From the IMG/VR virus record IMGVR_UViG_3300033181_000003, positions 1 to 55,745 of that record: 55,745 bases of DNA; one strand, written 5' to 3'. The stretch comes from a virus. Taxonomy: Duplodnaviria > Caudoviricetes. The position numbers were made by a program, and so were the translations under genes. This document shows positions 38,349-55,745 of the stretch, piece by piece. Under the pieces are notes generated by a model. It saw only the letters and a list, made by a program, of their open reading frames with translations. It did not search any database and was not told the origin of the DNA. The stretch's first letter is position 1; the number at the start of each line of letters is the position of its first letter.

Positions 38349-38824
38349 GCACCACCAAGCAGCGCGCGAGCGCGCCCGCCCACCCCATCACGAAGGTGCA
38401 GGTCATCGCGGTCATCCAAGCACTGGTGCAGATCGCCGCCGCACTCACCCTGAGCATCCCCGACAGCGTCTCGGTGGTCCTCATCGCCAACGCCGGCATC
38501 ATCGCGGTCGGTCTGACGTTCGCCGAGGCACACCTCCTGAAGGGCCGCTCCCAGTACCACGCGCTGACCTACGGCGCCCAGCTCGTGCGGGACGCCCTCC
38601 CGGTCATCACAAGCCTGACCGGCGCCCTCCCCACGCCTATCGGTCCCGAGGTGCACCTGGCCCTTCGGGACCTACAGGCAGCGGTGGACAAGCTCGCCAG
38701 CGCCCCGCCGGCCGCGGCGGCGTTGCCGGAGTTCGAGGTGTCCGTGCATCCCAAGGCTGCCCCCGCACCGGAGCCTCCCGCCGTGGCGCCCGAGCCTGCC
38801 CCTGCTACCGCACCTGTCGCATGA
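38345..38824 (+). CDS. Putative holin
   Basis: AAGGAGG RBS; two N-terminal TM helices; Pro/Ala tail. Confidence 0.6.
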   Translation: MSTTKQRASAPAHPITKVQVIAVIQALVQIAAALTLSIPDSVSVVLIANAGIIAVGLTFAEAHLLKGRSQYHALTYGAQLVRDALPVITSLTGALPTPIGPEVHLALRDLQAAVDKLASAPPAAAALPEFEVSVHPKAAPAPEPPAVAPEPAPATAPVA

Positions 38825-40759: not shown

Positions 40760-40816
40760 GATACCTGCCGGCGTTGCGGCAGGTAGTCCGGCGATACGAC
40801 GAGAGCGAGGCCGAGG

Positions 40817-41146
40817 ATGATCGGACGACGACTCCCTGTGATTGACGACAAGCCGACGATGCCTGAGCGCCCGGGCAACTACTGCGGCCCGTGCAGCGCA
40901 CAGCTCAGCAATCCGTCGATCTCGTGCGTGTTCTTCCTCAAGCCCAACGCACGCGACGCCGACGCCCCGCCCCACGCCCGCAGCATCCAGCACGTCGCCT
41001 CGCCGCCGCACCGCTTCATCGAGATGCCCGATGGCAGCCTGGAGATCCGCGAGTCAATCAGCGACCGCTGCAGTCGCCAACCGGACCTCGGCAGCGATGG
41101 GTGGCATGGCTACCTCGACGCCGGGCATGTCTGGCGTCAAGTTTGA
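40817..41146 (+). CDS. Hypothetical protein (DUF6527-like)
   Basis: DGSL....SI.......WHGYL..G.W C-terminus. Confidence 0.55.
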   Translation: MIGRRLPVIDDKPTMPERPGNYCGPCSAQLSNPSISCVFFLKPNARDADAPPHARSIQHVASPPHRFIEMPDGSLEIRESISDRCSRQPDLGSDGWHGYLDAGHVWRQV

Positions 41147-41147
41147 G

Positions 41148-41387
41148 ATGTCCGCCGCCGACCACGGGCTCGAGCGGCGTGTAGCGGAGGACATCACCCG
41201 CCGGATCGGCAGGGCCGGGTTCCGTGTCCGGCGGGTCGTCAGGGTGCTCCCACCGTTGGACACCGGCCAGCCGGTGGAGGTGTTGTTTCTCGGGGTGAAG
41301 CACAAGGATTGCGGGGCGGACCGGCCGTGGGCGGCACGTCTGGTGCCGGGTGGGGATGGGGACCCGCACATCACGGCTGGCTGGTGA
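41148..41387 (+). CDS. Hypothetical protein
   Basis: ATG 1 nt after the previous stop. Confidence 0.45.
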   Translation: MSAADHGLERRVAEDITRRIGRAGFRVRRVVRVLPPLDTGQPVEVLFLGVKHKDCGADRPWAARLVPGGDGDPHITAGW

Positions 41388-41390
41388 GCT

Positions 41391-41468
41391 TTCCCGCCTG
41401 AGGGCGGATGACCCCTTTGGGGGTGACCGGCCCTCGCCAAACGTGAGGGCTACTCAATCACGGGAGGT
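41391..41468 (+). ncRNA. Putative structured 5' leader sequestering the RBS
   Basis: Three-way junction closed by TTCCCG/CGGGAG and TGAG/CTCA, with two internal hairpins. Confidence 0.35.
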
Positions 41469-41475
41469 CGGACCT

Positions 41476-41877
41476 ATCCGACGCCTCATCGTCACGGCCG
41501 CCTTCATGGCGGTCTTTCTCGTTGTGCCCGCAACCACCCACGCGCACGCGAGGGGCTGCCACACCCGAAGCTGCGACCGGAGGGAGGGAAGGCACTATGC
41601 GGCCCACCACCTTGGCCCGCACTACACGGTCTCCTCGACGGCGTACTGTGAGGGCGGGACCACCGCGTCGGGCAGGCAGGCGTACTTCGGGGAGGTCGCC
41701 AACAACTTTCTCCCGTTGGGCACCCGGATACGTCTTGACCGGCCTGTCCGTGGGCGTCGGGTGTTTACGGTTTTGGACAGAATTGGCAGCGGGTCTGAGC
41801 TCGATTTCTTCCTGGGCACGGGTTGCGACGCTTATGGTCGCCAGGAGCGCGGGTTCCGGGTGCTGCGAGGCCGGTAG
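41476..41877 (+). CDS. Secreted 3D-domain (lytic transglycosylase-like) protein, probable ATC start
   Basis: GGAGGT 7 nt before ATC; signal peptide RRLIVTAAFMAVFLVVPATTHAHA; STAYC..TASG...VA..LPLGT...DR.G...LD.F. Confidence 0.7.
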   Translation: MRRLIVTAAFMAVFLVVPATTHAHARGCHTRSCDRREGRHYAAHHLGPHYTVSSTAYCEGGTTASGRQAYFGEVANNFLPLGTRIRLDRPVRGRRVFTVLDRIGSGSELDFFLGTGCDAYGRQERGFRVLRGR

Positions 41878-42084
41878 GCGCGGGGTTAGGGTGTTCTTGC
41901 TCGGGCGTCGTGCCCAGCGAGGCGTCGCCTCGATGCTGGACCGTCTGGCGTGTGCCCTGTATGGCCACGATCTGTCGTGGTCTCACGCGGTGGCGCAGGG
42001 TGTGACGTCGCGCCCGCTCTGCCGCCGCTGCGGCAGGTAGCTCATCGTCCCCTGAGTCCTTGGGGAATGCCTCCTCCCCAGCGC

Positions 42085-42119
42085 GAGCGCCCCGGCGAAA
42101 GCCGGGGCGTTTCGTCGTT
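42085..42119. terminator. Terminator at the end of the late operon
   Basis: GAGCGCCCCGGC-GAAA-GCCGGGGCGTTT plus a T-rich tail, between convergent transcription units. Confidence 0.75.
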
Positions 42120-42909
42120 AAAGGTCCCGGGGCCCGGGTGACGCGCTCGGGCCGATGCTTAGCTGGGATGTTTGGCTTGAGGCCAGGCGAAGCTCGGCGG
42201 TGGCGATAGCTTCGGTGGACCGTTTAGCCCGCAGAAGGGCAGCCTCGGCTTCGTTGACCGCACCTTGCTTCGCCCGGTGGTTTACCTCGCAGGTGCGCGC
42301 CGCAAGATTGACCGCCTGCACGAACTCCCTAGCCTTCGCCCCGGTGTCCGGGTTGCACTGCGCCGTCGTCGCCCAATCCGGCCCTTCGAGGAGCAGGTAC
42401 AACTCGCGGCCGTCTTTCGATGTCTTCTTGGGAGCGGCCAGCGCGAAGACACCGACCAGGGCAAACCGCGTCAGCGTGACGCGGCTGTTCGTGGCGAGGT
42501 TGCCGGCAGTGTCCACGGTCGCCTTCACCTCGGGCGAGAGTCGGTGCGTTCCTTCGGGGGTCTCGATCCGGTCCTCGTAAAGGACGAAGCGACGGGCCTT
42601 GAAGTCGGTGAGCTTTGCGTTGCCGGCCTCAAAGGATGCGAGCTGGCGTACCTTCTTGGACTTCGCCAGGGCTTTGGTGGCGCTACGGACTTGCTTCTTG
42701 TGGTCGCGCTGGGCGACGGCGAGCCCTTTCTGCGCCGCCTTCGTCTCGTCGCTTGGTCCCGGCGGGCGTGTGCGTTGGGGTTGTTCACCGCGAGTCCGGG
42801 TGAGGATCGCTTTGACCAGGCGATAGAGCCCGTAACCGAGCGCTACGAGGATCGCCAGCCCGAGCAGCGCTGACCCGAGCGATGCGCCCTTGGTGACGGC
42901 GAAAAGCAT
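42118..42909 (-). CDS. Membrane-anchored protein in the repressor operon
   Basis: N-terminal TM; RVTLTR....G.FALA..KK...ELYL motif; coiled coils. Confidence 0.7.
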   Translation of the reverse strand: MLFAVTKGASLGSALLGLAILVALGYGLYRLVKAILTRTRGEQPQRTRPPGPSDETKAAQKGLAVAQRDHKKQVRSATKALAKSKKVRQLASFEAGNAKLTDFKARRFVLYEDRIETPEGTHRLSPEVKATVDTAGNLATNSRVTLTRFALVGVFALAAPKKTSKDGRELYLLLEGPDWATTAQCNPDTGAKAREFVQAVNLAARTCEVNHRAKQGAVNEAEAALLRAKRSTEAIATAELRLASSQTSQLSIGPSASPGPRDL

Positions 42910-42911
42910 CG

Positions 42912-43391
42912 CTACCCCTCACCGCCGTGGTGCGAGCACGAGCCGCTGATCCCGCCCGCGTGACTGTAGGTGTTGTCAGCGCATCGCACGATGGTGCCGC
43001 CTTCCCCGGTGAAGTCACCGATGCATGTGTGGTTGGTGCAGAATTGGGCGTCGCCAGCATGACTCGAGGAGCCGACGTCCTCGGTCGGGCTTGGCGGTGG
43101 CTGGGCCTGAGTCGTGGTCGTGGTCGTGGTCGTGGTCGGTGGCGGTGCCTGAGTAGTCGTCTGGGCTGGTGCTGGCGTCGTGGCCACGGGCACCGGGGCC
43201 GGTCGATGGTGATGCTTGCGGTGGTGGTGAACGACCGGAGGCGCCGGAGTCGTCACCGCCGCAGGCTTGGGCGTCGCCGTTTTGTCAGCGGGCGCGATTG
43301 CCGCGATGAAGAGGAGGGCGACAAACAGGCCGAGAACCGTCCAGAGGGTTACTCGTGCCCATTTGGGCAGGGCGCGGAACCTGGCCCTCAT
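42912..43391 (-). CDS. Membrane-anchored Pro/Thr-rich protein with DUF3761-like Cys domain
   Basis: TM helix; poly-Thr linker; CAD.TYS.A....GSCSHHGG. Confidence 0.75.
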   Translation of the reverse strand: MRARFRALPKWARVTLWTVLGLFVALLFIAAIAPADKTATPKPAAVTTPAPPVVHHHRKHHHRPAPVPVATTPAPAQTTTQAPPPTTTTTTTTTQAQPPPSPTEDVGSSSHAGDAQFCTNHTCIGDFTGEGGTIVRCADNTYSHAGGISGSCSHHGGEG

Positions 43392-43870
43392 CGCTTCCCA
43401 GCGGGCAGGCGGCTATTGAGCGCGTTGACCGCTTGGCGTAGGAGGTCGAGCGCTTCCTCGTAGTGGGCCTTCTCGACGTAGGCGCCCATTCGCTCGTCGA
43501 TGTCTCGCAGGTGCTGGTCAATCTCCGCGAGAGAGCCGGCGCCCTGCTTGCCCGTGAGCGCGACCAGCAGTCCCTCGAATCTCCCGTCGAGCTGCTCCAC
43601 GGCGGCGCCCAGCGCCTCGATGCGGTTCTCGGGCGGGACGTACTGCGGCTCGAGCTGAGACCAGTCGGCGGTGAACCATTCGGGTGAGAGTCCGCACGCC
43701 TTGGCGTAGCCCTGGATCGCGGCGAGCTGGTCGTGCTCGTCGCGGTACTTCCCCTTCTCGTAGTTGATCACCGCGTCCTTGGTGCGGCCGCCCATCGTGG
43801 TCCCGAGGGTGGTCTGGCTTTGGCCGGCGTAGGCGCGGGCGGCGCGGAAGCGGTCCTCAAGTTCTCCCAT
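43388..43870 (-). CDS. Prophage immunity repressor (XRE HTH), leaderless
   Basis: RFRAAR..AG.SQ..LG......V..YE.G; divergent from the Cro-like genes; TAATCT -10 lies 8 nt upstream of ATG. Confidence 0.75.
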   Translation of the reverse strand: MGELEDRFRAARAYAGQSQTTLGTTMGGRTKDAVINYEKGKYRDEHDQLAAIQGYAKACGLSPEWFTADWSQLEPQYVPPENRIEALGAAVEQLDGRFEGLLVALTGKQGAGSLAEIDQHLRDIDERMGAYVEKAHYEEALDLLRQAVNALNSRLPAGKR

Positions 43871-43878
43871 CTAGCGGG

Positions 43879-43955
43879 AGATTACGGCCCATCCTGACCC
43901 GTGTGGGTCGTCCGAAGTGGGCTATTTGCCACCTTCGGCGGAGTTCTGCTACTGT
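43879..43955. promoter_or_regulatory. Divergent lysis/lysogeny promoters with a putative operator
   Basis: Minus-strand -10 TAATCT (43879-84); plus-strand TTGCCA-18 nt-TACTGT (43926-55); imperfect palindrome CCGAAGTGG...CCACCTTCGG (43912-38) covers the -35. Confidence 0.55.
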
Positions 43956-43965
43956 TGGTGGCCAG

Positions 43966-44202
43966 ATGCTTCCAAGTGTGACTCGCCAGAGGACCCCGAA
44001 TCGCCACCTGACCGAGTTGCGCGTCAACGGTGGCATGTCTCCCGGTGACCTGGCCTACCGGGCCGGGGTGTCCACCAAGACGGTCCGGATGGCGGAGTCC
44101 GGGTTTGTGCCCGGCCCGCGCATCCAGTTCGCCATCGCCCGCGTCTTCGGACTGCTCCCGCTCGACCTGTTCCCCCTTGAGCTCCAGCGGAGGTTTCGAT
44201 GA
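43966..44202 (+). CDS. Cro-like XRE protein
   Basis: L.ELR...GMS..DLA.RAGVS..TV...E.G..P. Confidence 0.75.
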   Translation: MLPSVTRQRTPNRHLTELRVNGGMSPGDLAYRAGVSTKTVRMAESGFVPGPRIQFAIARVFGLLPLDLFPLELQRRFR

Positions 44203-44402
44203 TCAACCTTCGGGCAGAGCGGATCAACCGGGGCCTGTCGCTTCGCATCGCAGCCGAGCAGATGGGGCTCGTGGACTGGAAGACCCTCCAGCGCGCTGAG
44301 ACGGGCGAGGCGGTCCCGCAGATTGCCAACGCGTACAAGATCGCCAGCTTCTTCGGCGTTCAGGTCACTGACGTGTGGCCGCTGGATCGGGAGGCCGCGT
44401 GA
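44199..44402 (+). CDS. Second Cro-like XRE protein
   Basis: LRAER..RGLS...AA..MG.....L.RAE.G...P.....KIA.FFGV. Confidence 0.8.
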   Translation: MINLRAERINRGLSLRIAAEQMGLVDWKTLQRAETGEAVPQIANAYKIASFFGVQVTDVWPLDREAA

Positions 44403-44587
44403 CCTTGTTCGCCATCTCCGTGGTGGCCCTCCTGGCCTTCGGTCTGGTCCTGCTCGTCTTCGCCGCCCTGTGCATCGTGGCGGCTGCTGCGGACCTGCGT
44501 GGGGACGGGGAGGATGAGGGCAACCCGTTGTGCCTGGTGGTCGACCTCGACGGGCACCGCGACCGACGCCGGGACGGTGCGGCATGA
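44399..44587 (+). CDS. Small membrane protein
   Basis: GTGA coupling; TM helix. Confidence 0.55.
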   Translation: MTLFAISVVALLAFGLVLLVFAALCIVAAAADLRGDGEDEGNPLCLVVDLDGHRDRRRDGAA

Positions 44588-45246
44588 GGGAGTTCGTCAA
44601 CGTCACCACCGAGGCAGACCTAGACCGCGTGATCGCCGAGGGCAACGTCCCGGTGTGCCGTTCAGGATTCTTCCGCGCCTTCGGCTCAGCGACGGTCCAC
44701 GCCTTCGGCTCAGCGACGGTCCGCGCCTTCGGCTCAGCGACGGTCCACGCCTTCGGCTCAGCGACGGTCCACGCCTTCGGCTCAGCGACGGTCCGCGCCT
44801 CCGAATGCGTGGCAATTCACCGCCACGGGGACAGCCCCAAGGTCACGGGTGGTGTCCTGATCCAGGTCCCGGAGATCGGGACCGCCAAGGGCTGGTGTGA
44901 CTACTTCGGGGTGAAGGTCACCCGTGGGCAGGCGGTCCTGTTCAAGGCGGTGGGCAATGACTTCCGTTCCGGTCATGGCGCGGAGTACACCCCGGGAGGG
45001 AAGACCGAGTGTGACGATTGGAACCCAAGGCCAGTGTGCGGCGGCGGGTTGCATTTCTCTCCGCGCCCGTTCTTGGCGTTGCGCTACAGCGACGGGCCGA
45101 GGTTTGTCGCGTGCAAGGTCCGGGTTGCCGATCTTGTGGTGATTCCAGAGTGTGGTGGCGTGCCGGATAAGGCGAAGGCCCCGAGGTGCGTGGTGTTGCA
45201 TGAGTGCGACGTGGACGGCGCTGAGCTTGCGGGGACGCAGGCATGA
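44584..45246 (+). CDS. Phage protein with octapeptide (beta-solenoid-like) repeats
   Basis: (R/H)AFGSATV x5, then LFKAV...CGGGLHF.P...KAKA C-terminal domain. Confidence 0.75.
   Translation: MREFVNVTTEADLDRVIAEGNVPVCRSGFFRAFGSATVHAFGSATVRAFGSATVHAFGSATVHAFGSATVRASECVAIHRHGDSPKVTGGVLIQVPEIGTAKGWCDYFGVKVTRGQAVLFKAVGNDFRSGHGAEYTPGGKTECDDWNPRPVCGGGLHFSPRPFLALRYSDGPRFVACKVRVADLVVIPECGGVPDKAKAPRCVVLHECDVDGAELAGTQA
44674..44800 (+). repeat. 24-bp tandem repeat, about 5.3 copies
   Basis: C(G/A)CGCCTTCGGCTCAGCGACGGTC. Confidence 0.9.
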
Positions 45247-45455
45247 CCGACCTGCACGGCATCTTCGCCGAGTTCGATGACCGCATGGACAAGGCGTTTG
45301 AGTTCGAAGGCGAGCCCTGGTCAGAGCGCGCAGAGTCCATCCTCCGCTGCCCGGCGTGCGGCAGCTACAGCGCTGAGGATGAGTGCGGGCGGACCCCTTA
45401 CGGCCTGGTGTGTGGGCCGTGCGCTGAGAGCGCCTACACGGTCTCCGAGCGATGA
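45243..45455 (+). CDS. Small Zn-finger protein
   Basis: CPAC...CGPC; ATGA-coupled. Confidence 0.6.
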   Translation: MTDLHGIFAEFDDRMDKAFEFEGEPWSERAESILRCPACGSYSAEDECGRTPYGLVCGPCAESAYTVSER

Positions 45456-45679
45456 GGCTGCGCCCGCGCATGGTCGCCCTGCTCACCCCCCGCGACGACC
45501 GCTGGGCACACGCGCAGGAGCGCTCCGCACGCAACACCCTGAGCCCCCGCACGGGCCTGGTCGCGGCGTCCCCGATCCTGCCGCCTATCCGCACGAACTT
45601 TGGGCGCAGTCTGCCCGCAAATCGCCCCGGCGACGCTGACACGTCCCGGGGCACGACCCAACAGGAGGAATGTTCCTGA
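45452..45679 (+). CDS. Hypothetical protein
   Basis: ATGA-coupled. Confidence 0.4.
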   Translation: MRLRPRMVALLTPRDDRWAHAQERSARNTLSPRTGLVAASPILPPIRTNFGRSLPANRPGDADTSRGTTQQEECS

Positions 45680-46095
45680 TGAGCGCAACAGACAGTAGCC
45701 CAACCACCATCGAGGATGTCGAGGTGAAGCGCCGTGCCGAGCTGGTCGCGGGCCTCCGAGACGCGGCCGACTTCATCGAGGCCACTCCGGCGGTCCCAGC
45801 GTGTTTCTCCGGGCTGCGCTTGTGCGGGCACGCGACAAGTCGGACGGCGTTTGTCGATGCGGTCGCTGCCCTTGGCGACCCGCCCCTGGTCGAGATTGCC
45901 GGCGGAGAGTACGTGGTGGCCGAGCGCCGGTTCGGGCCGGTCACCGCCGGGGTGCAGGGGTTGACGGCCGAGATGTCCGACACCTGCCCTGAGTGCGAGG
46001 GGGGTGGTGAGGTCACGGTCAACCCGTCCTCTGACCCGCAGGAGGCTTACGAGTCGCCATGCCCGACCTGTCACGGCGATGGGGTGCAGTCATGA
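45679..46095 (+). CDS. Hypothetical protein with DnaJ-type Zn finger
   Basis: CPECEGGG...CPTCHGDG. Confidence 0.65.
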   Translation: MSATDSSPTTIEDVEVKRRAELVAGLRDAADFIEATPAVPACFSGLRLCGHATSRTAFVDAVAALGDPPLVEIAGGEYVVAERRFGPVTAGVQGLTAEMSDTCPECEGGGEVTVNPSSDPQEAYESPCPTCHGDGVQS

Positions 46096-46793
46096 GCGCC
46101 ACCGAACAGACCGAGACGTTGCTGTCGGCGCTGCTCGCCTTCCAGGCCGATGTTCCCGAGCTGCGCGAGGACGCGACCAACCCGCACTTCAACTCAAAGT
46201 TCCTGTCTTTGGCCGCCCTGAGGAAAGCTGTGCGCCCAGTCTTGACCCGCCACGGGCTGGTGTGGATCACCAAGCCCGGGCACAGCCCGGACGTCGGGCC
46301 ATGCCTCTTTTACACGCTGGCCCACGCCCCGTCCGGCGAATCCATCGAGGGCATCATGCCCCTGCTGGCGAAGGCGGGTGACCCGCAAGGGCAGGGCTCC
46401 GCGCTCACCTACGCCCGCCGCTACTCGGAGATGGCGGTGCTGGGGCTCGTCGCCGATGATGATGACGATGGCAACCGGGGGTCTGGGCGCAGCACCCAAC
46501 GCAACGGGGAGTCCCGGCCGGCCGTGTCGGCACGCCCCCCCGAGGCGACCGAGCGCACGGTCACGGCAAGGCAGCGGGGTCTCATCAACGCGCGCGCCGC
46601 AGAGAAAAGCCTGACCAAGGCCGACCTGGCCGTCATCCTCGCCGCCGTTGCCGAACACAAAGACGCCTTTGCTTCCCCGGAGGCCGCGGAGAACTGGTAC
46701 GGGCGCGCGATGGACCGACTCCCCGCCCGGCTGGTGGACCCATTGCTCCAAGCCATCAGCACGGCTGAGGCCAACGACGCGGTGCCGTTCTGA
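46092..46793 (+). CDS. ERF-family single-strand annealing protein
   Basis: NPHF.SK...L, DPQ..GSALTYARRY....LG....DDDG. Confidence 0.88.
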   Translation: MSATEQTETLLSALLAFQADVPELREDATNPHFNSKFLSLAALRKAVRPVLTRHGLVWITKPGHSPDVGPCLFYTLAHAPSGESIEGIMPLLAKAGDPQGQGSALTYARRYSEMAVLGLVADDDDDGNRGSGRSTQRNGESRPAVSARPPEATERTVTARQRGLINARAAEKSLTKADLAVILAAVAEHKDAFASPEAAENWYGRAMDRLPARLVDPLLQAISTAEANDAVPF

Positions 46794-47602
46794 TGTCCCT
46801 CGCGGAGCTCGACATCCCCACCCGGCTACCGGTGGCCAACCTGTCGGCGTCTGCGGTCAAGACCTACCTGGCGTGCCCGCTCAGATGGAAGCACCGCTAC
46901 GTCGACCGCGACTATGAGGCCCCGTCCGGTCAGATGGTCCTCGGGTCCTCGGTCGGTGCGGCTGAGGGCCACGCCTACCAGCAGCAGATCGATGACGGGG
47001 AACGTCCCGCCACCGATGTGGTGGTGGACCTGTTCGCCGATGAGTGGGAGGACCGTATCGGCCGTGAGGAGATCGACTGGCGCCAGTCAAAGCCCGGTGA
47101 GCTGAAGGATGCCGGCGTCCAGGCGGTCACCGCCTACGACCTGCTCGTGGTCCCCGGTGTGGACCCGGTCAGTGTGGAGCGTGAGTTCCTCCTGAGCTTC
47201 GACGGGGTGGAGTGGGGCTTCACCGGCTTCTATGACCTTGAGGAGGCTGATGGTGCGGTCTCAGACCTGAAGGTCAAGGCCCGCAAGCTGTCCGTGGTCG
47301 ACGCGGCAACCGACATTCAGCCGACCGCGTACCTGCTCGCCCGCCGTGCCGAGGGCAACCCCGCCCCGGTGTTTCGCTACCACACGATGATCCGCACCAA
47401 GCAGCCCTACGCGGAGGTTGTGCCGACCGTCCGCACCGATGGTCAGTTGGACGCTTTCACCGACCGGCTGATGATGGTGGCGGCGGAAATCAACTGGCGC
47501 CTGGAGATGGATGTGTGGCAGGGCGCGGTTCCGGGGTCTTGGATCTGTAGCGCGAACTTTTGCGGATATCACGCCACCTGTCGGTTCGGGGGTGCGCGGT
47601 GA
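46793..47602 (+). CDS. PD-(D/E)XK RecB-like exonuclease
   Basis: LSAS....Y..CP, VE..F, G..DL......DLK, Q..AY, C-terminal C....C.Y...C. Confidence 0.85.
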   Translation: MSLAELDIPTRLPVANLSASAVKTYLACPLRWKHRYVDRDYEAPSGQMVLGSSVGAAEGHAYQQQIDDGERPATDVVVDLFADEWEDRIGREEIDWRQSKPGELKDAGVQAVTAYDLLVVPGVDPVSVEREFLLSFDGVEWGFTGFYDLEEADGAVSDLKVKARKLSVVDAATDIQPTAYLLARRAEGNPAPVFRYHTMIRTKQPYAEVVPTVRTDGQLDAFTDRLMMVAAEINWRLEMDVWQGAVPGSWICSANFCGYHATCRFGGAR

Positions 47603-47997
47603 GCGATTCGCCCTACACGTTCGGCCAAGCCCGCGAGAAGGTCCGAGAGGCCACCCGCCGGCAGGAGGCAGCCGAGCAGTTCCGTGTCGACGTCACCAAG
47701 GATTGGGCCGAGAAGGAGCGCGCCTACCGAATCGCACTCGCCCGCCGGATTGTGGAGGTTCACGCGGAGGGGGCGGCGTGGACGGTCGCCCCAGACCTTG
47801 CCCGTGGTGACCGTGCCGTGGCCGACCTCCGCTATGCCCGGGATGTGGCGGCCGGGGTGAAGGACGCGGCGGAGTCCGCGATGTGGCGGCACACGGCTGA
47901 CCGGCGTGACCTTGGGCGGATGGTGGACTGGTCCTGCCGGCGGGAGCTTGCAGAGGACCCGCCGCAGCCACGGTGGAGCGGGCGGCAGGCGGCATGA
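47599..47997 (+). CDS. Hypothetical helical protein
   Basis: GTGA- and ATGA-coupled. Confidence 0.65.
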   Translation: MSDSPYTFGQAREKVREATRRQEAAEQFRVDVTKDWAEKERAYRIALARRIVEVHAEGAAWTVAPDLARGDRAVADLRYARDVAAGVKDAAESAMWRHTADRRDLGRMVDWSCRRELAEDPPQPRWSGRQAA

Positions 47998-48578
47998 GGG
48001 GCCGCACCGTCAAGTCCCCAGAGCTGGTCGCCGAGGCCCGGCGCCTGCGTGCAGGTGGGATGTTCGGCCGGGAGATCGCCGCGGAGCTCGGGGTGGCCCG
48101 CAGCACCGTCTATGAGTGGCTGACTGACCCGGACAGGTCCCAGGCGGAGGCCCGCCGCGATCGCTACCGCGGTGTGTGCGAGGAGTGCGGAGGGCCGACC
48201 GATGGGAGCGCTGGCCTTGGCCGCGCGCCAAAGGTGTGCGTCACCTGCCTGGGCTGGACGGGTGAGGAGATCATTGCGGCGGTCAGACGGTGGGCCGATG
48301 AGCACGGAAGTCCCCCAACCGCCACCGAGTGGAACACTGCACAGCCCGGCTACCCGTCCGCGTCGACGGTGGTCAACCGTCTCGGATGGAATGAGGCACT
48401 CCTCGCCGCCGGGCTGCCCTTGCGCTGGGACCGGCGCCCCGAAACCCGGCAGGCGATCGAGCGGGCGGCGGTCGCCGGGGAGCCCCTCGCTGACATAGCC
48501 GCACGCCACGGAATGACCGTGGCCAACATCCGCACGCGCCTGCGTTATCACGGTGTGAGTGCGAGGCCAGCGGCATGA
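47994..48578 (+). CDS. HTH/Zn-ribbon DNA-binding protein
   Basis: EIAAELGVARSTVYEWL; two CxxC; W..E.II.A...W....G.PP...W repeat. Confidence 0.7.
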   Translation: MRGRTVKSPELVAEARRLRAGGMFGREIAAELGVARSTVYEWLTDPDRSQAEARRDRYRGVCEECGGPTDGSAGLGRAPKVCVTCLGWTGEEIIAAVRRWADEHGSPPTATEWNTAQPGYPSASTVVNRLGWNEALLAAGLPLRWDRRPETRQAIERAAVAGEPLADIAARHGMTVANIRTRLRYHGVSARPAA

Positions 48579-48910
48579 CGCAGACCGAGCGGGTCCTCGC
48601 CGCACTCAAGGCTGTCGGCCCACGCGGGGTGACGGGCTATGACTTCTCCGGCCCTGTTGTTATTGACGGTGGCCACCGGGTGATGCGGGTCGCGGCGAGG
48701 GTGTTGGAGCTCCGCGAGCAGGGCCACCGGGTTGCGAGTGCCGGCTGGCGCGACGGTCACCGGGTGTATCGCCTTGAGTCCGGGGTTGAGGTCGCCCCTG
48801 CCCCTGTGGACCTTCCCCTGTCGGGGTCTGGTGTGGGCGGGGGCGACCTGAGTCCCGGGCAACTGTTCGACACGCCGGCGGCCCCGCTTGAGCACTGGGA
48901 GGCGGCGTGA
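48575..48910 (+). CDS. Winged-HTH protein
   Basis: TQ.ERVL.AL...G..G.T...R.AAR..ELR..G. Confidence 0.65.
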   Translation: MTQTERVLAALKAVGPRGVTGYDFSGPVVIDGGHRVMRVAARVLELREQGHRVASAGWRDGHRVYRLESGVEVAPAPVDLPLSGSGVGGGDLSPGQLFDTPAAPLEHWEAA

Positions 48911-49227
48911 GCGACACCGACTGGAGGCGGGTTCACGCCAACGGGGCCGAGAAGGCAATCAGGCATCCGCTGGTCGCCTACGTTATGGACGAGCTGGCCG
49001 ACAATCTCGGCGTCAAAGGCCAGGCGCTCCCTGGGTACGGCATCGCCAAGGTGGCTAACTACGCCGCCCAGGTGGCCCGTGCCCAGGCGCTCGGATTCGA
49101 CCCCGAGCTACTGCGGATGAGCGACGAGGAAGCGGACGCGCAGGGGCTCGCCCTGGCCCGCTCAGCGGTCGCCGCCGGCAAACCCGTTTGGGCGATTCGC
49201 GGCGATGACGTCCAACGGCTCGATTGA
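48907..49227 (+). CDS. Hypothetical protein
   Basis: GTGA-coupled. Confidence 0.6.
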   Translation: MSDTDWRRVHANGAEKAIRHPLVAYVMDELADNLGVKGQALPGYGIAKVANYAAQVARAQALGFDPELLRMSDEEADAQGLALARSAVAAGKPVWAIRGDDVQRLD

Positions 49228-49408
49228 GACCAAGATCGTGACGCCTCCAGCCCAAAGCACTCGCCATCCGGCACCCCTCTTCAGCGTGGGCTCCCGCTGC
49301 CTCCGATGCGACCTACGCCTCCCCTTAGCGCATGTGGGTGTGTGCCCGGAGTGCGAAGGGCCGGTGCTGAAGGCCCACGTCTATCCGCCGGGGGTGAGGG
49401 CGGGGTGA
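49205..49408 (+). CDS. Small Zn-ribbon protein
   Basis: CLRC...CPEC. Confidence 0.5.
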   Translation: MTSNGSIETKIVTPPAQSTRHPAPLFSVGSRCLRCDLRLPLAHVGVCPECEGPVLKAHVYPPGVRAG

Positions 49409-49686
49409 GCGCGACGCGCAAGGCGACAGAAAAACAGGCTCGGCTCCTGCGGGTACTCGCCGGCGGCAGCATCGTCCTGGTCCCCATGCGCCGTGGGTGG
49501 ATGCCGATAGTTCGCCGCGGGTGGGTGGAGACCACCAAGGGTGAGCACATCGCACCCGACGGTAAGCCCCACGGCCGGTACCTGCCCCCGCTGCGGATCA
49601 CCCCGGACGGGTTGCGCGCGCTCGCGGATGCGACCGAAGCCGGGACAATTGAGCCGGTCTCCATCAAGGGACCGGAGGCGTCGTGA
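49405..49686 (+). CDS. Hypothetical (wHTH-like) protein
   Basis: GTGA-coupled; RIT.DG..AL motif. Confidence 0.55.
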   Translation: MSATRKATEKQARLLRVLAGGSIVLVPMRRGWMPIVRRGWVETTKGEHIAPDGKPHGRYLPPLRITPDGLRALADATEAGTIEPVSIKGPEAS

Positions 49687-50129
49687 ATTCCATCGCCCTC
49701 ACGGTCCCCGGTCCACCAAAAGGCAAGGGGAGGCCGCGCTCCACCCGTCAGGGCCGGGTCTACACGCCCGCTGACACCGTGAGCGCGGAGCAGCGCATCC
49801 AGGGGGAGTGGATAGCCGCCGGCCGCCCACGACTCCCGGACGGCCCGATCAGCATGGACGTCACAGCATGCATGTCCCGCCCGCAGGCGCACTGGCGGGG
49901 GCTTGGCGCCATGTCGGCGCAGGGTCGAAGTCAGCGCTACCCGCTCAAGACACCAGACGTCGACAATCTCCTCAAACTCGCTGCCGATGCTCTCAGCGGG
50001 CTGGCCTACAGCGACGATCGGTTGATCGTTCAGGCATCGGTCACCCGCCAGTGGGCGCTCGCCGGACAGCTCGAGCACACCCGCATAGTCCTCTACTCAC
50101 TGGCCGGACAGATGACGGTGGCGGCGTGA
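49683..50129 (+). CDS. rusA: RusA-family Holliday junction resolvase
   Basis: VPG.P..K.RPR...YTP..T; PDVDNLLK...DAL.G.AY.DD..I. Confidence 0.9.
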   Translation: MNSIALTVPGPPKGKGRPRSTRQGRVYTPADTVSAEQRIQGEWIAAGRPRLPDGPISMDVTACMSRPQAHWRGLGAMSAQGRSQRYPLKTPDVDNLLKLAADALSGLAYSDDRLIVQASVTRQWALAGQLEHTRIVLYSLAGQMTVAA

Positions 50130-50992
50130 GTCGCCGTGTGTGGTTCGCCCGTGACTGCCAGCTCACCGCTGACCCGCGCATCGCGGCCATCGGGGATGAG
50201 CACGGCCCCGGCGGCGTCCTCGTTGTTGAGGAGATATTCGCCCTGGCGAAGCTCGCGGATGACGGCGGAAATGTCACGGTTGGTCACGCTACGCTCGCCC
50301 GGCGGGCGTGGGTGACCACGGTGGAGGCGCAGGCAATCGTGGCCACAGCGGTGGATGAGGGGATCATCGAGATCACGTCTGGGGGTGACCGGCGGGTGAC
50401 CATGCGGGTGCTCAAGCACCGCAAGTGGAATCCCAATGATCCCACGGCATCCGAGCGAAAGGCACGTCAACGTCACGGGGAAAGTCACGGCCGCGAGCGT
50501 GACATCGAGCGTGACAACAGCGTGACCAAGCCGGGACAAGGGCGTGACTCGGTCACGGTCCCGTCACGCCCTCTCGCGCGCGCCCCGCGAACACCGACAC
50601 CAACACCTACAGAAGAAGGTAAACCTTCTTCCTCCGAGATTGAGAAACCACGCCCTGAGGTCGAGGGGCTTTGCCAGCATCTCGCCGACCTCATCATCGC
50701 CAACGGTGCCCGGCGCAGCCAGACGGTGGTGACCGACGTGTGGCGTCGTGAGTGCCGGCTGCTGCTGGACCGGGACGGGGTGGCACCGGACCGGGTGAGG
50801 GCGGTCATCGAGTGGTGCCAGGCCGACGAGTTCTGGCGGTCCAACGTCCTCTCGATGCCAAAGCTGCGGGAGAAGTTCGATCAGCTCTCAGCGAAGGAGC
50901 AGGCGACCCGGCCTAAGGCACGGCCGGCGCGGAGGATGCACCCGGTAACCACCGAGGAGCTCAGGCAACTCAACGAAAGGAAGACGGCATGA
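50126..50992 (+). CDS. Putative replication initiator
   Basis: N-terminal W......DP.I wHTH; C-terminal W....RLLL..DG.....I.W...D.FW..NVLS..KLR.KFDQL. Confidence 0.75.
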   Translation: MSRRVWFARDCQLTADPRIAAIGDEHGPGGVLVVEEIFALAKLADDGGNVTVGHATLARRAWVTTVEAQAIVATAVDEGIIEITSGGDRRVTMRVLKHRKWNPNDPTASERKARQRHGESHGRERDIERDNSVTKPGQGRDSVTVPSRPLARAPRTPTPTPTEEGKPSSSEIEKPRPEVEGLCQHLADLIIANGARRSQTVVTDVWRRECRLLLDRDGVAPDRVRAVIEWCQADEFWRSNVLSMPKLREKFDQLSAKEQATRPKARPARRMHPVTTEELRQLNERKTA

Positions 50993-51861
50993 ACTACGAA
51001 CTCAAGAAGGGCGCCCACGCGACCGCTGAGGATGGAATGTGCGCCGCAGAGGCGGTGAGTTACCTGGCGGGCGAGCCGCACTCCGCCAACCCGCAATGTG
51101 CGTGCCCCGTGCTCACCGCGTTCTACATTGGCTTCAACGATGGGTTGCCCTTCGAGCCACGGCAGCGCCTGCGCCCGTTCTTCGCTCGGACCCTCGGAAC
51201 CCGTGGTGATGGGATGACCGAGCAGAGGTCGTGGATGGCGATGGACTGGCTCATCCGGGTCTACACCCCGACGTGGCTGAGTCTCGCCGGCCTGGATGCT
51301 GACGCGGACCGTCTGCGTGCTTTGCCACCGGTACTCGCCGCGGAGAACCTGAGTCGTGCGATGGGTGACCTGGGCCAGGCGCGAGCGTCAGTGAGCGCCG
51401 CATGGGCCGCCGCATGGGCCGCCGCAGGGGACGCCGCAGGGGCCGCCGCAGGGGCCGCCGCACGGGCCGCCGCAGGGGCCGCCGCATGGGCCGCCGCAGG
51501 GGCCGCCGCAGGGGCCGCCGCATGGGCCGCCGCAGGGGCCGCCGCATGGGCCGCCGCAGGGGACGCCGCAGGGGACGCCGCATGGGCCGCCGCAGGGGAC
51601 GCCGCAGGGGCCGCCGCATGGGCCGCCGCAGGGGCCGCCGCAGGGGCCGCCGCAGGGGACGCCGCATGGGACGCCGCAGGGGACGCCGCAGGGGACGCCG
51701 CACGGGACGCCGCAGGGGACGCCGCATGGGACGCCCTCGCGCCCACAGTCACCGAGCTTCAGGAGTCCGCGTTCGCGCTCCTGGACCGGATGCTGCCCGA
51801 GGTGCCCTTGATGGCGCCAGTGGCCGAGGATGCCGACCTGGTGCTCGGGGTCGCGGCGTGA
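50989..51861 (+). CDS. Phage protein with Ala-rich AAW/AAG/DAA tetrapeptide repeats
   Basis: GAH......CA.EAV...AGE.HS..P.C.CPV...F....ND N-terminal domain followed by repeats. Confidence 0.8.
   Translation: MNYELKKGAHATAEDGMCAAEAVSYLAGEPHSANPQCACPVLTAFYIGFNDGLPFEPRQRLRPFFARTLGTRGDGMTEQRSWMAMDWLIRVYTPTWLSLAGLDADADRLRALPPVLAAENLSRAMGDLGQARASVSAAWAAAWAAAGDAAGAAAGAAARAAAGAAAWAAAGAAAGAAAWAAAGAAAWAAAGDAAGDAAWAAAGDAAGAAAWAAAGAAAGAAAGDAAWDAAGDAAGDAARDAAGDAAWDALAPTVTELQESAFALLDRMLPEVPLMAPVAEDADLVLGVAA
51397..51735 (+). repeat. 12-bp tandem repeat array (about 28 units)
   Basis: GCCGCA(T/G/C)GGG(C/A)C units. Confidence 0.9.
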
Positions 51862-52052
51862 GCGAACCTGCCGTCATCCCGGAGGCGGCCGTGGAGGCGG
51901 CCGCGAAGGCGCTGGTCTGGGAGCGTGATCAGGGCTGCCTGGCGTGGGATGACGCTGACTACTGCACGCAGGGTCTCGCTCTCAAGCATGCCCGTGCGGC
52001 GTTGGAAGCAGCCTTTGAGGTCCTTACCCGTGAGCCGGAGGGAGGCCAGTGA
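51858..52052 (+). CDS. Hypothetical protein
   Basis: EAAVEAAAKAL...ARAALEAA; GTGA-coupled. Confidence 0.6.
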   Translation: MSEPAVIPEAAVEAAAKALVWERDQGCLAWDDADYCTQGLALKHARAALEAAFEVLTREPEGGQ

Positions 52053-52348
52053 ACCACCAGCCCCTCGATGCCCTCGCCGTGGCGAATGAGGCCCGGCTGG
52101 CGCAGGTCGCGGTGCGGCGTGCGGTCACCTCCGGGGACCTGGGGCTCGCCGACGCGCTGACTCACCCGGATGCCCAGCGGATGACCGTGGTTCGCTTGTT
52201 GTGCGCTCAGCGTGGGTGGGGGCACGTCAGGGCGTCGAAGGCGCTATCGGAGGTCGGGGTGTCTCAGTCGCGGCGGGTGGGGGAGCTGACTGACCGCCAG
52301 CGGCAGGTGTTGGCCGACCACGTTGAGAGGGCGAGGGGGGCGGCATGA
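52049..52348 (+). CDS. Actinobacterial IHF (mIHF/sIHF, H2TH)-like DNA-bending protein
   Basis: AL..AN.AR......G.......M.V..LL....G.G.VRA.K.L...G.S..RRVG.L..RQR..L. Confidence 0.75.
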   Translation: MNHQPLDALAVANEARLAQVAVRRAVTSGDLGLADALTHPDAQRMTVVRLLCAQRGWGHVRASKALSEVGVSQSRRVGELTDRQRQVLADHVERARGAA

Positions 52349-52791
52349 GCTTGGCGGTGATTCTTGTGGACGATTTCGACGGCTACATCGAGACGTACGC
52401 CTGGGTGGAGGTCATTGAGGGGGAGACCGACACCCAGGAGAAGGCACTCGCTTGCCTAGAAGCGGAGTATCCGATTGCCGAGTGGCGGCCTGGCACGGCA
52501 ACCTACAAAGTGACGGGCTGCGTCTTCCAGAGGCTTTCGGGATACGCAGTGCCCGGCGACGATGACGTGAGGTCAGAGCGTCCGCTGGCTGACTATTCGG
52601 ACCCGTGCCGCGACTGCGAAGGCCGAGGTCACCAAGCGGATGATGACCGCTGCGAGGGCTGCAGGGGCACCGGCCTGGAGATTGACTGGCTCGACTGGCT
52701 CTATCAGGACGAGTTTCAACCCTGGGAGACCTGTGCCGCAGACGACCCCGAGGGTCGACCGTTCTGGAAAGTCGAGGTCGTCGAGCGATGA
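52345..52791 (+). CDS. Hypothetical protein with CxxCxGxG Zn finger
   Basis: CRDCEGRG...CEGCRGTG. Confidence 0.6.
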   Translation: MSLAVILVDDFDGYIETYAWVEVIEGETDTQEKALACLEAEYPIAEWRPGTATYKVTGCVFQRLSGYAVPGDDDVRSERPLADYSDPCRDCEGRGHQADDDRCEGCRGTGLEIDWLDWLYQDEFQPWETCAADDPEGRPFWKVEVVER

Positions 52792-53279
52792 CCCAACCAG
52801 CCCCGCGCCCGGCGGACTTCATCCTGACTCGTCGTCATGGCCTGTCATCCGCCCTTATCGCCCTTGGGCAACGCCGCCGGTACCCGAGGTCGTCGTGTGC
52901 CCGGTGGTCCCATGCCGGAATATTGACCGGCCGGGGGACCGTCGTGGAAGCCCTAACCCGTGGGGTGGTGGAAACCCCGCTGGCCGCCTACCAGGACATC
53001 GAGCACGTGGTGGTCCGGGTGGACGCGACCCCGGAGCAACGGAGCCTGGCGGTCGCGTTTGCTGACCATGCTGTGGGGCGAAGGTACGGGTGGGTGGAGA
53101 TTGCCTCCCTGGTCGTGTCGTTGCTGACGGGCACCGGGCTGTCGGTGAACGTGGACAATCAGATGGTGTGCTCCGGGTTGGTCGCTGAGTGTTTGTGTCG
53201 GACGGCGGCGATTTTCCCTCGGGAGCCGTCGCGGATGTTGCCGGCGGATTTGGCGGCGTTCTACGAGGTCACCGGGTGA
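52788..53279 (+). CDS. Permuted NlpC/P60 (YiiX/YebB-like) enzyme
   Basis: WSHAGI....VVEA...GV precedes VCSGLVA. Confidence 0.8.
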   Translation: MTQPAPRPADFILTRRHGLSSALIALGQRRRYPRSSCARWSHAGILTGRGTVVEALTRGVVETPLAAYQDIEHVVVRVDATPEQRSLAVAFADHAVGRRYGWVEIASLVVSLLTGTGLSVNVDNQMVCSGLVAECLCRTAAIFPREPSRMLPADLAAFYEVTG

Positions 53280-53863
53280 GCCGGTACCGAACGATCTGCG
53301 CTGACCCGCCGTGGGAGCAGCCGGATAGCGGCAGGCGCACTAGATCGACGGCAGGTAACTGGACCGGCAAGTGGCTCGGTTATGAGTCAAAAGTGCCCTA
53401 CGACCGCATGACTCTCGATGCGATCAGGGCGCTACCGGTGCGGGCGCTCGCGGAGGACGATGCGCACCTGTATCTCTGGACGACCAACCGCTTTTTGCGC
53501 GACGCCTATGAGGTGGTTGAAGCGTGGGGATTCAAGCCTTCGACGCTCCTGACTTGGTGCAAGGCGCCGATGGGGATAGGTCTCGGTGGTGCGTACACCA
53601 TCACCACGGAGTTCGTCATTTTCGCCCGGCGGGGGTCGCTGAAGCCCCTGCGGCGTTTGGACACGACGTGGTGGCGATTCAAGCGCCCTTACGGCGAGAA
53701 CGGTGGTCCCGCGCACTCGCGTAAGCCCGACGGTTTCCTCGATGTGGTCGAGCAGGTGTCGCCGGGCCCGTACGTGGAGCTGTTCGCTCGCCGTGCCCGG
53801 TTCGGCTGGGACTACTGGGGTGACGAGTCTTTGGGCACCGCTGACCTTGGGAGCGCGGCGTGA
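53276..53863 (+). CDS. MT-A70 family adenine methyltransferase
   Basis: Y.TI.ADPPW, LYLW.TN, WGF, TW.K, HS.KP, ELFAR. Confidence 0.9.
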   Translation: MSRYRTICADPPWEQPDSGRRTRSTAGNWTGKWLGYESKVPYDRMTLDAIRALPVRALAEDDAHLYLWTTNRFLRDAYEVVEAWGFKPSTLLTWCKAPMGIGLGGAYTITTEFVIFARRGSLKPLRRLDTTWWRFKRPYGENGGPAHSRKPDGFLDVVEQVSPGPYVELFARRARFGWDYWGDESLGTADLGSAA

Positions 53864-54084
53864 GCGGGTTGCGGTTATCGCTTCGTGGGCGGCTCATTCT
53901 CGAGCGCGGGCCGGCTGAGCTAAAGCTCTGCACACTCTGTGGAGGCGCGTTCCCGCGGCATGAGCTGGCCCGCCGTGGTTACCGGCCGGGACACTCGATG
54001 TGCCCGGAGTGCCTGCAGAACGACCCGGTGGAGATCGTGGATGCCATCGAATACGCACAGCGTGACCGGTATCCCTCAGGATGA
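53860..54084 (+). CDS. Small Zn-finger protein
   Basis: CTLC...CPEC. Confidence 0.55.
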   Translation: MSGLRLSLRGRLILERGPAELKLCTLCGGAFPRHELARRGYRPGHSMCPECLQNDPVEIVDAIEYAQRDRYPSG

Positions 54085-54308
54085 GCCGTCCCGTCCCGCG
54101 TGTGGCGTTGACCCGACCCGATCCGGCAGGTGACCAGCCGTTCACTCTCACCCCAGCAGCTCGCGCCGGCCTAGAGGCCGCCTGGATTCGCATCCTCAAC
54201 GAGCGTCATCCCGGCCTCCGGTTCCGCGTCGTGCGAGAGGATCGTGACGCGCTCACCGACCGGCCCACGGCCACGACGGACAACGACCGCCGAGAAAGCG
54301 CCGCGTAA
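54081..54308 (+). CDS. Small protein overlapping the integrase 3' end; recombination directionality factor candidate
   Basis: ATGA-coupled last gene of the early operon, convergent with and overlapping the integrase. Confidence 0.45.
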   Translation: MSRPVPRVALTRPDPAGDQPFTLTPAARAGLEAAWIRILNERHPGLRFRVVREDRDALTDRPTATTDNDRRESAA

Positions 54309-55589
54309 CACATGCCCCAACGAGTCAGCGTCCAGCCCAGCCCAGTCCTCAACGTCCGGCACCACCCGTGCGGCCGGTCGGAGCCGCTCAACCTCTTCGC
54401 GCAGCTCCGTGCGGGCCCGGTCCCGTGCGGCGGCCCTCGCCTCAAGCGCCACGGTCCACCCCTGCTCCCCGAGCAGTCGGCGGGCGTGGGTGTCCGAAGC
54501 GAACACTGCCAGCTCGGCCTCGGCCTCGTCCACGGCCCGTTGCACCGGGGCCAGGTCCGCGCTCTCATCCCCGCCGCCCTCGAATGTGGTCCCGGCGAAA
54601 GCCCGTGCCAGTCTCCCCGTCACATGCTCCTCAAGGGAGTCGGCGGTGATGAGCGCCGGCATCGTGCACATCGTCCCTCGGTAGCCGCTGACCGCCGCAC
54701 CGCACCGGTACATGCGGATGTTTGGTCCGCCCCTCCCACCGACCATGTGGTGCCCGCAGGACCCGCACCGGGCAAGCCCCGACAGGGGGTAGCGTCCACG
54801 CCCACGCCGTTTGACGGTCTCCCCGGGTTGGGCGAGTTCGAATGTCAGGCGGTCGATGAGCGGCGGGTGACCGGCCGGGTTGTGCAGGTCGCCGTAGGAC
54901 TGCTCCCCAAGGTAGGCGCGCAGGCTGAGGAGTCGGCGGGTGGTGGTGGTCGTCCAGGTGCGCTGCGGGACCGTCTCCGTCAGGTAGTCGATGGTGGCGT
55001 GCAGGCCATGGTTGCGGGCCCGACGGAACGCTTCGGCGACAATGGGGGCCTGGACAGGGTCGGGCTGGAGGGTCCCGTCCGCCTGGCGACGGTACCCGTA
55101 GGGTGTGCGGCTGATCTTCGCCCCACGCCCGACCGCGCGGGTCTTGGCGGTCTCCCACGAGGCTTTGACGTTGTTGAGCTCGAGGGCGCCGACGGCGAGC
55201 AGGACGGTGAGGATGAACTCACCGAACGGGCCGGTCGGGTCGATGTCCTCTTCGATGCAGGCGAGCACCCCGCCGGCCTGGCGGATGCGTTGCACGTCAC
55301 GGAGCGCTTCGGAGACGTTGCGTGCGAACCGGTTCAGTCGCCAGCAGGCCAGCCCACCCGTTTCCCCGGTCTCGATGCGGTGCAGGGCAGCTTTCAGCCC
55401 GGGCCGGTTCTGGCTGGCGCCGGACTCATCCTCGTCGGTGTGCCATTCGGCGACGATGATCTGCCGGTAGTCGGCCCAGCGCTGGATGGCTTCGCGTTGT
55501 ACGGTGGGCGAGATGTAGGCGGCGCCTTCACGTCCGAGGCGGCGGGAGACGCGGATGTAGCCGTCTACGGCCAAGGGTTTCTGCCCCAC
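54171..55589 (-). CDS. Large serine integrase
   Basis: YIRVS catalytic motif, SG....RPGL, RLNRFAR, PYGY recombinase domain, LSGL.RC..CG and Y.C Zn ribbon, coiled coil. Confidence 0.95.
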
Positions 55590-55597
55590 GGGAAGGT

Positions 55598-55626
55598 ATT
55601 ATGCAGGTATCGACCAACCAGTTCAA
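55598..55626 (-). promoter_or_regulatory. Putative leaderless integrase promoter spanning attR
   Basis: Minus strand TTGAAC-17 nt-CATAAT-8 nt-GTG. Confidence 0.5.
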
Positions 55627-55745
55627 GAGCGGCAACCACATCGAGGTCGACGGCACCGTCTTCAAGGTCGTCGAGTTTCAGCACGTAAAGCCCGGCAAGG
55701 GCGGCGCCTTCGTACGGACCAAGCTGAGGCGCTCCTCTGACGGGG
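55601..55745 (+). CDS. efp: Elongation factor P (partial, runs off the window) with phage-supplied N-terminus
   Basis: [44 protein letters not shown], including the EF-P signature HVKPGKG.AFVR; GGAAGG upstream. Confidence 0.95.
55602..55643. other. attR (phage P arm + host B' arm), predicted crossover TT at 55622-55623
   Basis: Inverted-repeat partner of the attL arm; shared CAGTTCA core. Confidence 0.8.

Follow-up and report, generated by a model that had tools for sequence, protein, structure and literature searches.

We analyzed a complete virus record from IMG/VR (IMGVR_UViG_3300033181_000003; hereafter, the window), which is 55,745 bases long, metagenome-derived and rated 93% complete. 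The window is a tailed prophage of ~55.5 kb in a Solirubrobacterales host, a soil bacterium, with 125 bases of host DNA on the left and 120 bases on the right. The two flanks hold the separated parts of efp, the gene for the translation factor EF-P. A first-pass annotation, made from the sequence alone, had proposed that a serine-integrase prophage splits the 5' end of efp and that one arm of its attachment site (attP) doubles as a coding replacement for that end. The junctions and an empty site, described below, bear this out.

Attachment sites and integrase at the efp locus

At the left junction (attL), host DNA from upstream of efp (1..105, plus strand) leads to the native start, a GTG at 106 that opens the first seven codons of the gene, MISTNQF (106..126, plus strand). 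These codons are orphaned in the prophage, as the frame then enters unrelated sequence (RMVCAC...). At the right junction (attR), an ATG at 55601 opens a frame that consists of the phage-encoded codons M-Q-V-S-T-N-Q (55601..55621, plus strand; the P arm of attP), continues into host efp from codon 9 onward (55626..55745, plus strand) and runs off the window end. Native and phage-encoded copies use different codons for serine (AGC and TCG, respectively) and asparagine (AAT and AAC), which confirms at both window ends a difference that had been pointed out before.

Both junctions contain the same 7-bp block, CAGTTCA (121..127 in attL; 55619..55625 in attR). Its predicted central dinucleotide is TT (124-125 and 55622-55623), which places the likely crossover in codon 7 of efp. 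When attP was reconstructed by joining the two junctions, the TT of CAGTTCA was the best dyad centre (13/24 matches). The P arm carries the distal motif TGCAGG (55602-55607), mirrored by CCTGCA (140-145) in the P' arm (126..150), both at the same distance from the TT (14 nt). TGCAGG includes the TG of the rebuilt efp ATG. Dyad symmetry around the TT was found in nine attP sites (8-18 of 24 matches; 6 expected by chance), and in all four reconstructed attP sites the best dyad centre was the TT. Identical blocks in attL and attR were only 6-15 bp, and there were no long direct repeats. Attachment sites of the phiC31/Bxb1 type are short, with a dyad-symmetric attP that adjoins the integrase gene and a non-palindromic dinucleotide at the centre. 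The efp sites, which are likewise short, with a central dinucleotide and a dyad-symmetric attP, are those of a serine recombinase.

A gene on the minus strand (54171..55589) encodes a protein of 472 aa. Since this protein has Resolvase (PF00239, 1.1e-22, residues 10-157), Recombinase (PF07508, 1.7e-06) and zinc-ribbon (Zn_ribbon_recom, PF13408, 1.1e-10) domains, we identify it as a large serine integrase. As in other large serine recombinases, the catalytic domain contains the serine, and the Recombinase and zinc-ribbon domains lie downstream of it. Enzymes of this class recombine attP with attB independently of host factors and require a directionality factor for excision. In an alignment of 10 members of the clade described below (A1), Y11, R13, S15 and R16 were invariant, as were the zinc-ribbon cysteines C275, C278, C296 and C308; S15, in the motif Y-x-R-V-S-R, occupies the position of the serine nucleophile. 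The integrase and the rebuilt efp are divergent. As had been noted earlier, only 11 nt separate the integrase GTG (55589, minus strand) from the efp ATG at 55601. This spacer (55590..55600, plus strand) holds AAGG 4 nt before the ATG, and spacers of the same length were found at two other loci (L024 and L026).

The empty site and EF-P in related hosts

When metagenome contigs were searched with 26 bases taken from the left junction, a single contig, L066, was found. This contig matches window positions 1-130 (96.9% identity) and 55613-55745 (98.5% identity) as one uninterrupted stretch, which is the arrangement obtained by joining 1-125 to 55624-end. It begins efp with MISTNQF, in the same codons as the window's left end, and these run directly into the rest of EF-P. 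The protein database gave a matching picture: P0007 (186 aa, starting with MI) is identical at 183/185 positions to P0002 (187 aa, starting with MQV). P0002 and P0003 (187 aa) are identical to the 48 EF-P residues encoded in the window, and their precomputed annotations list the three EF-P domains (PF08207, PF01132 and PF09285). Near-identical hosts (L066 and P0007) therefore have the native gene end at the empty site, as gene-preserving integration requires. Because the relatives start with MISTNQF, the MQVSTNQF form was not already present in the phage-free gene.

All EF-P database matches with a source name came from Solirubrobacterales or Solirubrobacteraceae. Among the best 120 EF-P matches, the N-termini were MI (39), MAI (33), VI (6), MQV (3), long annotated extensions (11) and other short variants (28). 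It should also be noted that one clearly different EF-P, P0107, starts with MQVSTNQF as well and may belong to another lysogen of a related phage.

We looked for the junctions in assembled contigs from public runs, counting a contig as bridging if it extended 31 letters on each side. Record 12 of X2, an independent run, crosses attR without a mismatch and extends more than 31 letters both ways; it was the only contig to bridge attR by this measure, with X1 record 1 and X3 record 17 reaching 23-29 letters beyond the core. Runs X1 and X3 also contained contigs with the native AAT codon at the position of 55618. These fit lysogens and non-lysogens living side by side, and do not thereby prove excision. 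No attP junction was found among the listed loose ends of these contigs.

A clade of efp-targeting integrases

We searched 401 sampled genomes of the host order for related integrases; the genomes compared are mostly metagenome bins. At a threshold of E <= 1e-25, 53 genomes gave a match, and 30 loci were taken for comparison, with 31 lower-scoring matches lying outside these loci. One genome, G785, enters only the tallies of this search and of the M-x-I start search described below. At 10 of the 30 loci, efp divergently adjoins the start of the integrase gene. A maximum-likelihood tree of 32 integrases placed all 12 efp-linked sequences (the window, L002 and the 10 genome loci) in one clade of 14 (support 100/99), and none of the 18 sequences outside the clade was efp-linked. 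Within the clade, identity to the window's integrase goes down to ~40%.

The other two members of the clade are L023 and L038 (long branch). The L023 integrase adjoins the C-terminal half of an MFS transporter gene. The closest clade member without a link to efp, with 44% identity, is L053 (G887:C2:576000-584000). Its neighbouring open reading frame (ORF) matches only the C-terminal half of the MFS_1 profile, which suggests a switch of target to a transporter gene at the G887 locus.

Scanning viral contigs with a single integrase sequence gave no match. An alignment-based profile scan of viral contigs yielded 10 loci for examination, with two weak partial matches (L064 and L065) left out. One of the 10 is a further attR (L055, MVISTNQL...). 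Two are viral contigs of 36 and 41 kb (L056 and L057) with an internal integrase gene and an intact attP, the arm encoding MQLSTNQF followed by a stop in L056 and MVISTNQF followed by non-EF-P sequence in L057. L054 and L058 end at the integrase start, with the arm beyond the contig, and no efp-type arm was seen at the other five (L059-L063). A scan of genome contigs returned a sole match, L002 in genome bin G001, which is a third intact attP (arm MSISTNQL). Because the intact attP sites of L002, L056 and L057 encode M-x-[I/L]-STNQ[F/L], the replacement N-terminus is carried by the element before integration. The exact 25-base arm of the window's phage was absent from the other viral contigs scanned.

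In total, we compared 15 element arms, three of them unintegrated attP sites. They encode M/V-x-[I/V/L]-[S/T/G]-T-N-Q, and in all 15 the start codon is in the efp frame, 2-3 codons before [S/T/G]-T-N-Q, as expected of an in-frame replacement. The suggestion that integrase homologues would have the same efp target and a conserved M-x-x-STNQ in attP thus held across the clade, with L019-L022 deviating. Searches with two degenerate motifs did not find an attL remnant in G791, G845 or G622.

Selection on the encoded peptide

Left junctions were located with a degenerate motif in three genomes (G680, G647 and G698), which together with the window gives four attL/attR pairs. Among the 16 codons for I, S/T, T and N in these pairs, 10 differ between the native end and the element arm. 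Nine of these 10 differences are synonymous, and the remaining one changes I to V. The native serine codon AGC becomes TCG or TCC in element arms, and this switch between the AGC and TCN codon families has occurred in three lineages with the serine kept. The G647 arm has three synonymous changes yet still encodes I-T-T, the variant specific to its host.

The two arms of attP provide an internal comparison, as the mirrored P' arm is presumably bound by the same integrase. T-N-Q is encoded by the P arm in 9/9 attP sites and by the P' arm in 0/9 (P' arms have N in 1/9 and T in 5/9). The distal motif that holds the start codon is often common to both arms, and ATG occurs in both in 4/9 sites. Taken from codon usage and arm asymmetry, these patterns show selection acting on the encoded peptide rather than on the DNA. 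The same had been proposed from the window's two codon differences, and it now extends to the synonymous changes in other pairs and to attP sites that are not integrated.

All four paired arms add one residue after the initiator methionine. The extra codon may exist because the start is tied to the distal motif, and relative to the native GTG this motif is 3 nt more distant from the centre.

Expression signals of the native and rebuilt genes

On the native side, a -10-like hexamer, TAGCCT (93..98, plus strand), lies 7 nt before the GTG, as in a putative leaderless-type promoter. TAnnnT ends 5-10 nt before the start in 13/18 native-side efp sites, compared with a frequency of 0.004 at random positions in the same loci. 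The native promoter therefore looks leaderless or near-leaderless, in agreement with the first-pass annotation. Since this promoter stays at attL, transcription of the rebuilt efp must come from phage DNA.

Some of the element arms contain candidate signals of their own. The TAnnnT hexamer is present in 5/15 arms (L018 and the near-identical L019-L022), and a motif like a Shine-Dalgarno sequence lies 13-14 nt from the start in L055 and in the four arms of L019-L022. Pattern scans of 52000-55745 found no convincing terminator. The same region contains one sigma-70-like pattern facing the integrase (55598..55626, minus strand; -35 TTGAAC, 17-nt spacer, -10 CATAAT), compared with 0.1 sites expected from shuffled sequence. 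This is a match to consensus only. The pattern overlaps both the efp ATG and the crossover, and one base of its -35 element, which spans the crossover, is host-derived.

In 8/10 carrier genomes, the efp beside the integrase was the only efp match. The exceptions are G587, in which the gene matches in two frames, and G837, which has a second contig with an ordinary efp. We infer that the rebuilt efp is expressed and functional.

Other carriers and integrase relics

Phages are not the only carriers of these integrases, as the clade also includes a 21-kb metabolic island and mini-elements of 6-9 kb. In G680 (L047/L052/L018; G680:C4:1116166-1137335), a single contig holds both attL and attR, 21 kb from each other. 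The island carries a FAD/Rieske oxidoreductase, a GMC oxidoreductase, an enolase-superfamily enzyme, a TPP enzyme, a GH15 hydrolase, an SDR, a luciferase-like monooxygenase and a sigma-70 factor, with no phage genes. The mini-elements are ~5.9 kb in G728 (L070; G728:C1:2652900-2659600) and ~9 kb in G803 (L071; G803:C15:82950-92700). A near-identical mini-element integrase is present in four genomes, with an arm that rewrites the EF-P N-terminus to V-L-G-T-N-Q-F. Cargo in G803 includes two HNH proteins, an AAA_21 ATPase, a PIN protein and a winged-helix regulator; four ORFs tested in G728 had no Pfam match. Both junctions are on single long contigs in G680, G728 and G803.

Remains of integrase genes or element arms were found in four genomes beside efp starts that lack an intact element on the side of the remnant. 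In G698 (L049), a block of 70-79 bp upstream of the native-type start at the left junction resembles the right junction's element arm (~90% identity) and includes the first codons of an integrase. In G728 (L068), an integrase stub (approximately residues 20-66) lies upstream of the left junction in the divergent geometry of an element arm and is 89% identical to the L017 integrase. The other two came from a motif search for efp starts of the M-x-I type, which gave 24 cases in the 401 genomes, four of them with intact integrases. G687 (L096) has a 72-residue integrase stub in the standard geometry beside such a start, and G896 (L085) has a 36-residue integrase fragment in inverted orientation. 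Nine of the remaining 18 M-x-I starts have a native-like hexamer 8-11 bases before the start. A further motif match, L089, was dropped as a chance hit.

Because integrase relics stand beside efp starts in these four genomes, arms can apparently outlive their elements and become the efp start of the host, and the sequences indicate that element arms become fixed. A broader idea, which we put forward only tentatively, is that the 5' end of efp in Solirubrobacterales is a palimpsest. Serine-integrase elements would repeatedly overwrite the promoter, start and N-terminus, and when an element decays, its arm and integrase stub would stay as the permanent control region of efp. Part of the variety of M-x-I EF-P would then be of mobile-element origin. 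In lysogens, EF-P would be under element signals that overlap the integrase promoter, such that carriage would tune EF-P output.

Interpretation of the rebuilt gene

The phage very probably swaps the efp start for its own in-frame version and thereby keeps the rebuilt gene working while occupying a conserved target. Under this model, a temperate tailed phage would integrate by means of its large serine integrase at the TT in codon 7 of host efp, with the first, highly conserved codons of the gene serving as attB. The P arm, beside the divergent integrase gene, supplies the in-frame ATG and the codons for Q-V-S-T-N-Q. As the arm holds these codons, the native GTG and MISTNQF are exchanged for the phage's MQVSTNQF, and the EF-P frame stays whole, one residue longer. 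The ATG lies within the distal dyad motif, presumably where the zinc-ribbon domain of the integrase binds; because of this position, the arm would serve two purposes at once. By our inference, the arrangement serves to preserve efp function at a target that is both conserved and reliable.

Several observations weigh against this model. The core block and the adjacent ACNAAY bases may also be fixed by integrase recognition, and peptide conservation is not strict: the four L019-L022 genomes replace I-[S/T] with L-G, since those codons form the elements' own distal dyad motif. Pattern scans found no plus-strand sigma-70-like promoter in 52000-55745. A phage-encoded Shine-Dalgarno sequence, claimed in the first-pass annotation, is not supported as a general feature, as a Shine-Dalgarno-like motif near the start (only AAGG, 4 nt) is present in the window's arm only (1/15) and is not conserved in the relatives. 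In G587 (G587:C20:82068-82621; L027/L051), efp matches EF-P in two overlapping pieces in different frames, which may reflect a frameshifted or broken gene or an assembly error. Separate contigs carry attR and the attL candidate (or second efp) in G647, G698 and G837. Lastly, the bin that contains L002, G001, has an EF-P of its own beginning with MAVSTNNF, and only 1/146 genomes of its order, G001 itself, has an integrase match; L002 is probably mis-binned or a free, unintegrated element of uncertain host.

The first-pass annotation had raised active lysogeny, in which EF-P production is altered or shut off by integration and polyproline translation is switched through reversible excision. Integration does part efp from its conserved -10-like hexamer, the scans of the window found no promoter for the rebuilt gene, and the integrase-facing pattern overlaps the efp ATG. 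The native-AAT contigs from the runs that also contain the lysogen form (X1 and X3) are compatible with excision or a mixed population, and the mobile element SpyCIM1 in mutL is a described switch of this kind (PMC4129442). However, the frame is rebuilt in 15/15 arms and the arm is under peptide-level selection, which would have no point in a gene intended to stay silent. The frame is whole and P0002, at 187 aa, retains all three EF-P domains, so the gene does not look inactivated. Furthermore, arms persist as the permanent efp start after elements decay, which argues that the arm alone sustains efp. As the gene is rebuilt rather than broken, excision is not needed to restore it, and we consider a switch unlikely.

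A still less likely explanation is that the resemblance between arm and efp reflects DNA recognition by the integrase only, with the in-frame start a by-product and efp disrupted or dispensable. The position of the ATG in a dyad-symmetric motif that is mirrored in the P' arm, with ATG in both arms at several sites, would suit this explanation, as would the bases beside the core (ACNAAY CAG) that are common to attP and attB. It would not account for the AGC/TCN switches that retain serine in three lineages, the absence of T-N-Q from every P' arm, or the G647 arm that follows the peptide of its own host through synonymous changes, and the single efp copy found in most carriers speaks against a dispensable gene. 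It is harder still to credit that the phage-host junction is a chimera of assembly or binning, even though the record is metagenome-derived and its host flanks are short: the X2 contig is identical across attR, the same geometry is found on single long contigs in G680, G728 and G803 with the two junctions 21, 5.9 and 9 kb apart, respectively, and 10 further genomes, as well as viral contigs, show this arrangement.

Comparison with known integration systems

In-frame replacement of the efp start is gene-preserving integration of a variant kind, with a 5' target, a recoded start and a serine integrase. The distal attP motif of the efp clade differs from that of phiC31/Bxb1-type sites in also holding the start codon used after integration. 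We know of no described case of this, and a literature search found no described attP whose distal motif holds a start codon. Likewise, a full-text literature search gave no report of efp as an attachment site, although lists of predicted att sites may lie in the supplements of recombinase surveys.

According to PMC4129442, gene-preserving integration is normally at 3' ends, and phage 21, for example, replaces 165 bp of the 3' end of icd. As in tRNA genes and icd, the efp elements carry a copy of the displaced target end and the target stays whole. In contrast to these 3'-end systems, the efp elements replace the 5' end, including the start codon, N-terminus and promoter. Moreover, the copy is recoded, only 6-15 bp are identical between the junctions, and a serine integrase takes the place of the tyrosine type.

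Closer in position are the streptococcal integrative and conjugative elements (ICEs) with tyrosine integrases, which, according to PMC4701971, enter the 5' ends of ftsK, rbgA and ebfC and leave the N-terminus as it was; in some of these insertions, a different promoter region comes to lie upstream. Both systems insert into the 5' end of essential genes. The efp system differs in that the N-terminus gains one residue and in that a serine-integrase clade preserves its target, whereas all 29 of the serine-integrase ICEs studied in that work are described there as disrupting theirs. SpyCIM1 is another mobile element that occupies the 5' end of a housekeeping gene. As described in PMC4129442, it silences mutL and its excision acts as a switch, whereas efp is rebuilt rather than silenced. 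In strain Manfredo, according to the same source, a promoter inside an integrase pseudogene drives mutL, which parallels the integrase relics beside efp. PMC4701971 and PMC6957869 also mention comK, sigK and kamA as serine-recombinase targets. A118-type phages in comK, skin in sigK, and SPbeta resemble the efp elements in using large serine recombinases that target the inside of a protein-coding gene. However, they split the gene into non-functional halves that excision restores, while such restoration is unneeded for efp.

Intragenic insertion by serine integrases is best known for disrupting the target gene, and here the target is rebuilt. A deep clade of these enzymes lands in the first codons of a near-universal translation factor and carries a recoded start in its recognition site. 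Because of this placement, one short stretch of DNA meets two constraints, integrase binding on the one hand and coding plus translation initiation on the other. Mobile elements thus substitute their own sequence for a core gene's promoter and start, in some cases for good, which offers a route for turnover of core-gene control regions. In practical terms, the clade yields integrase/attP/attB triplets for which the bacterial target is conserved and the gene is spared.

Other genes of the prophage

The prophage body (126..55621) extends for ~55.5 kb between the two TT dinucleotides. PHROGs matches within it identify a large terminase (11858-13390), a portal (13575-14969), a major head protein (18205-19122), a tape measure (23418-28235) and a replication initiator (49808-50992), and because these genes lie between the two ends, the insert is a genuine tailed prophage. 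The first phage ORF past attL (135-662) has a weak, sub-threshold match to GIY-YIG (E 0.009). Near the integrase, the plus strand encodes a C92-family permuted papain-like amidase (52788-53279) and an MT-A70 methyltransferase (53189-53863). Together, these two genes (52788-53863) converge on the 3' end of the integrase gene from the opposite strand.

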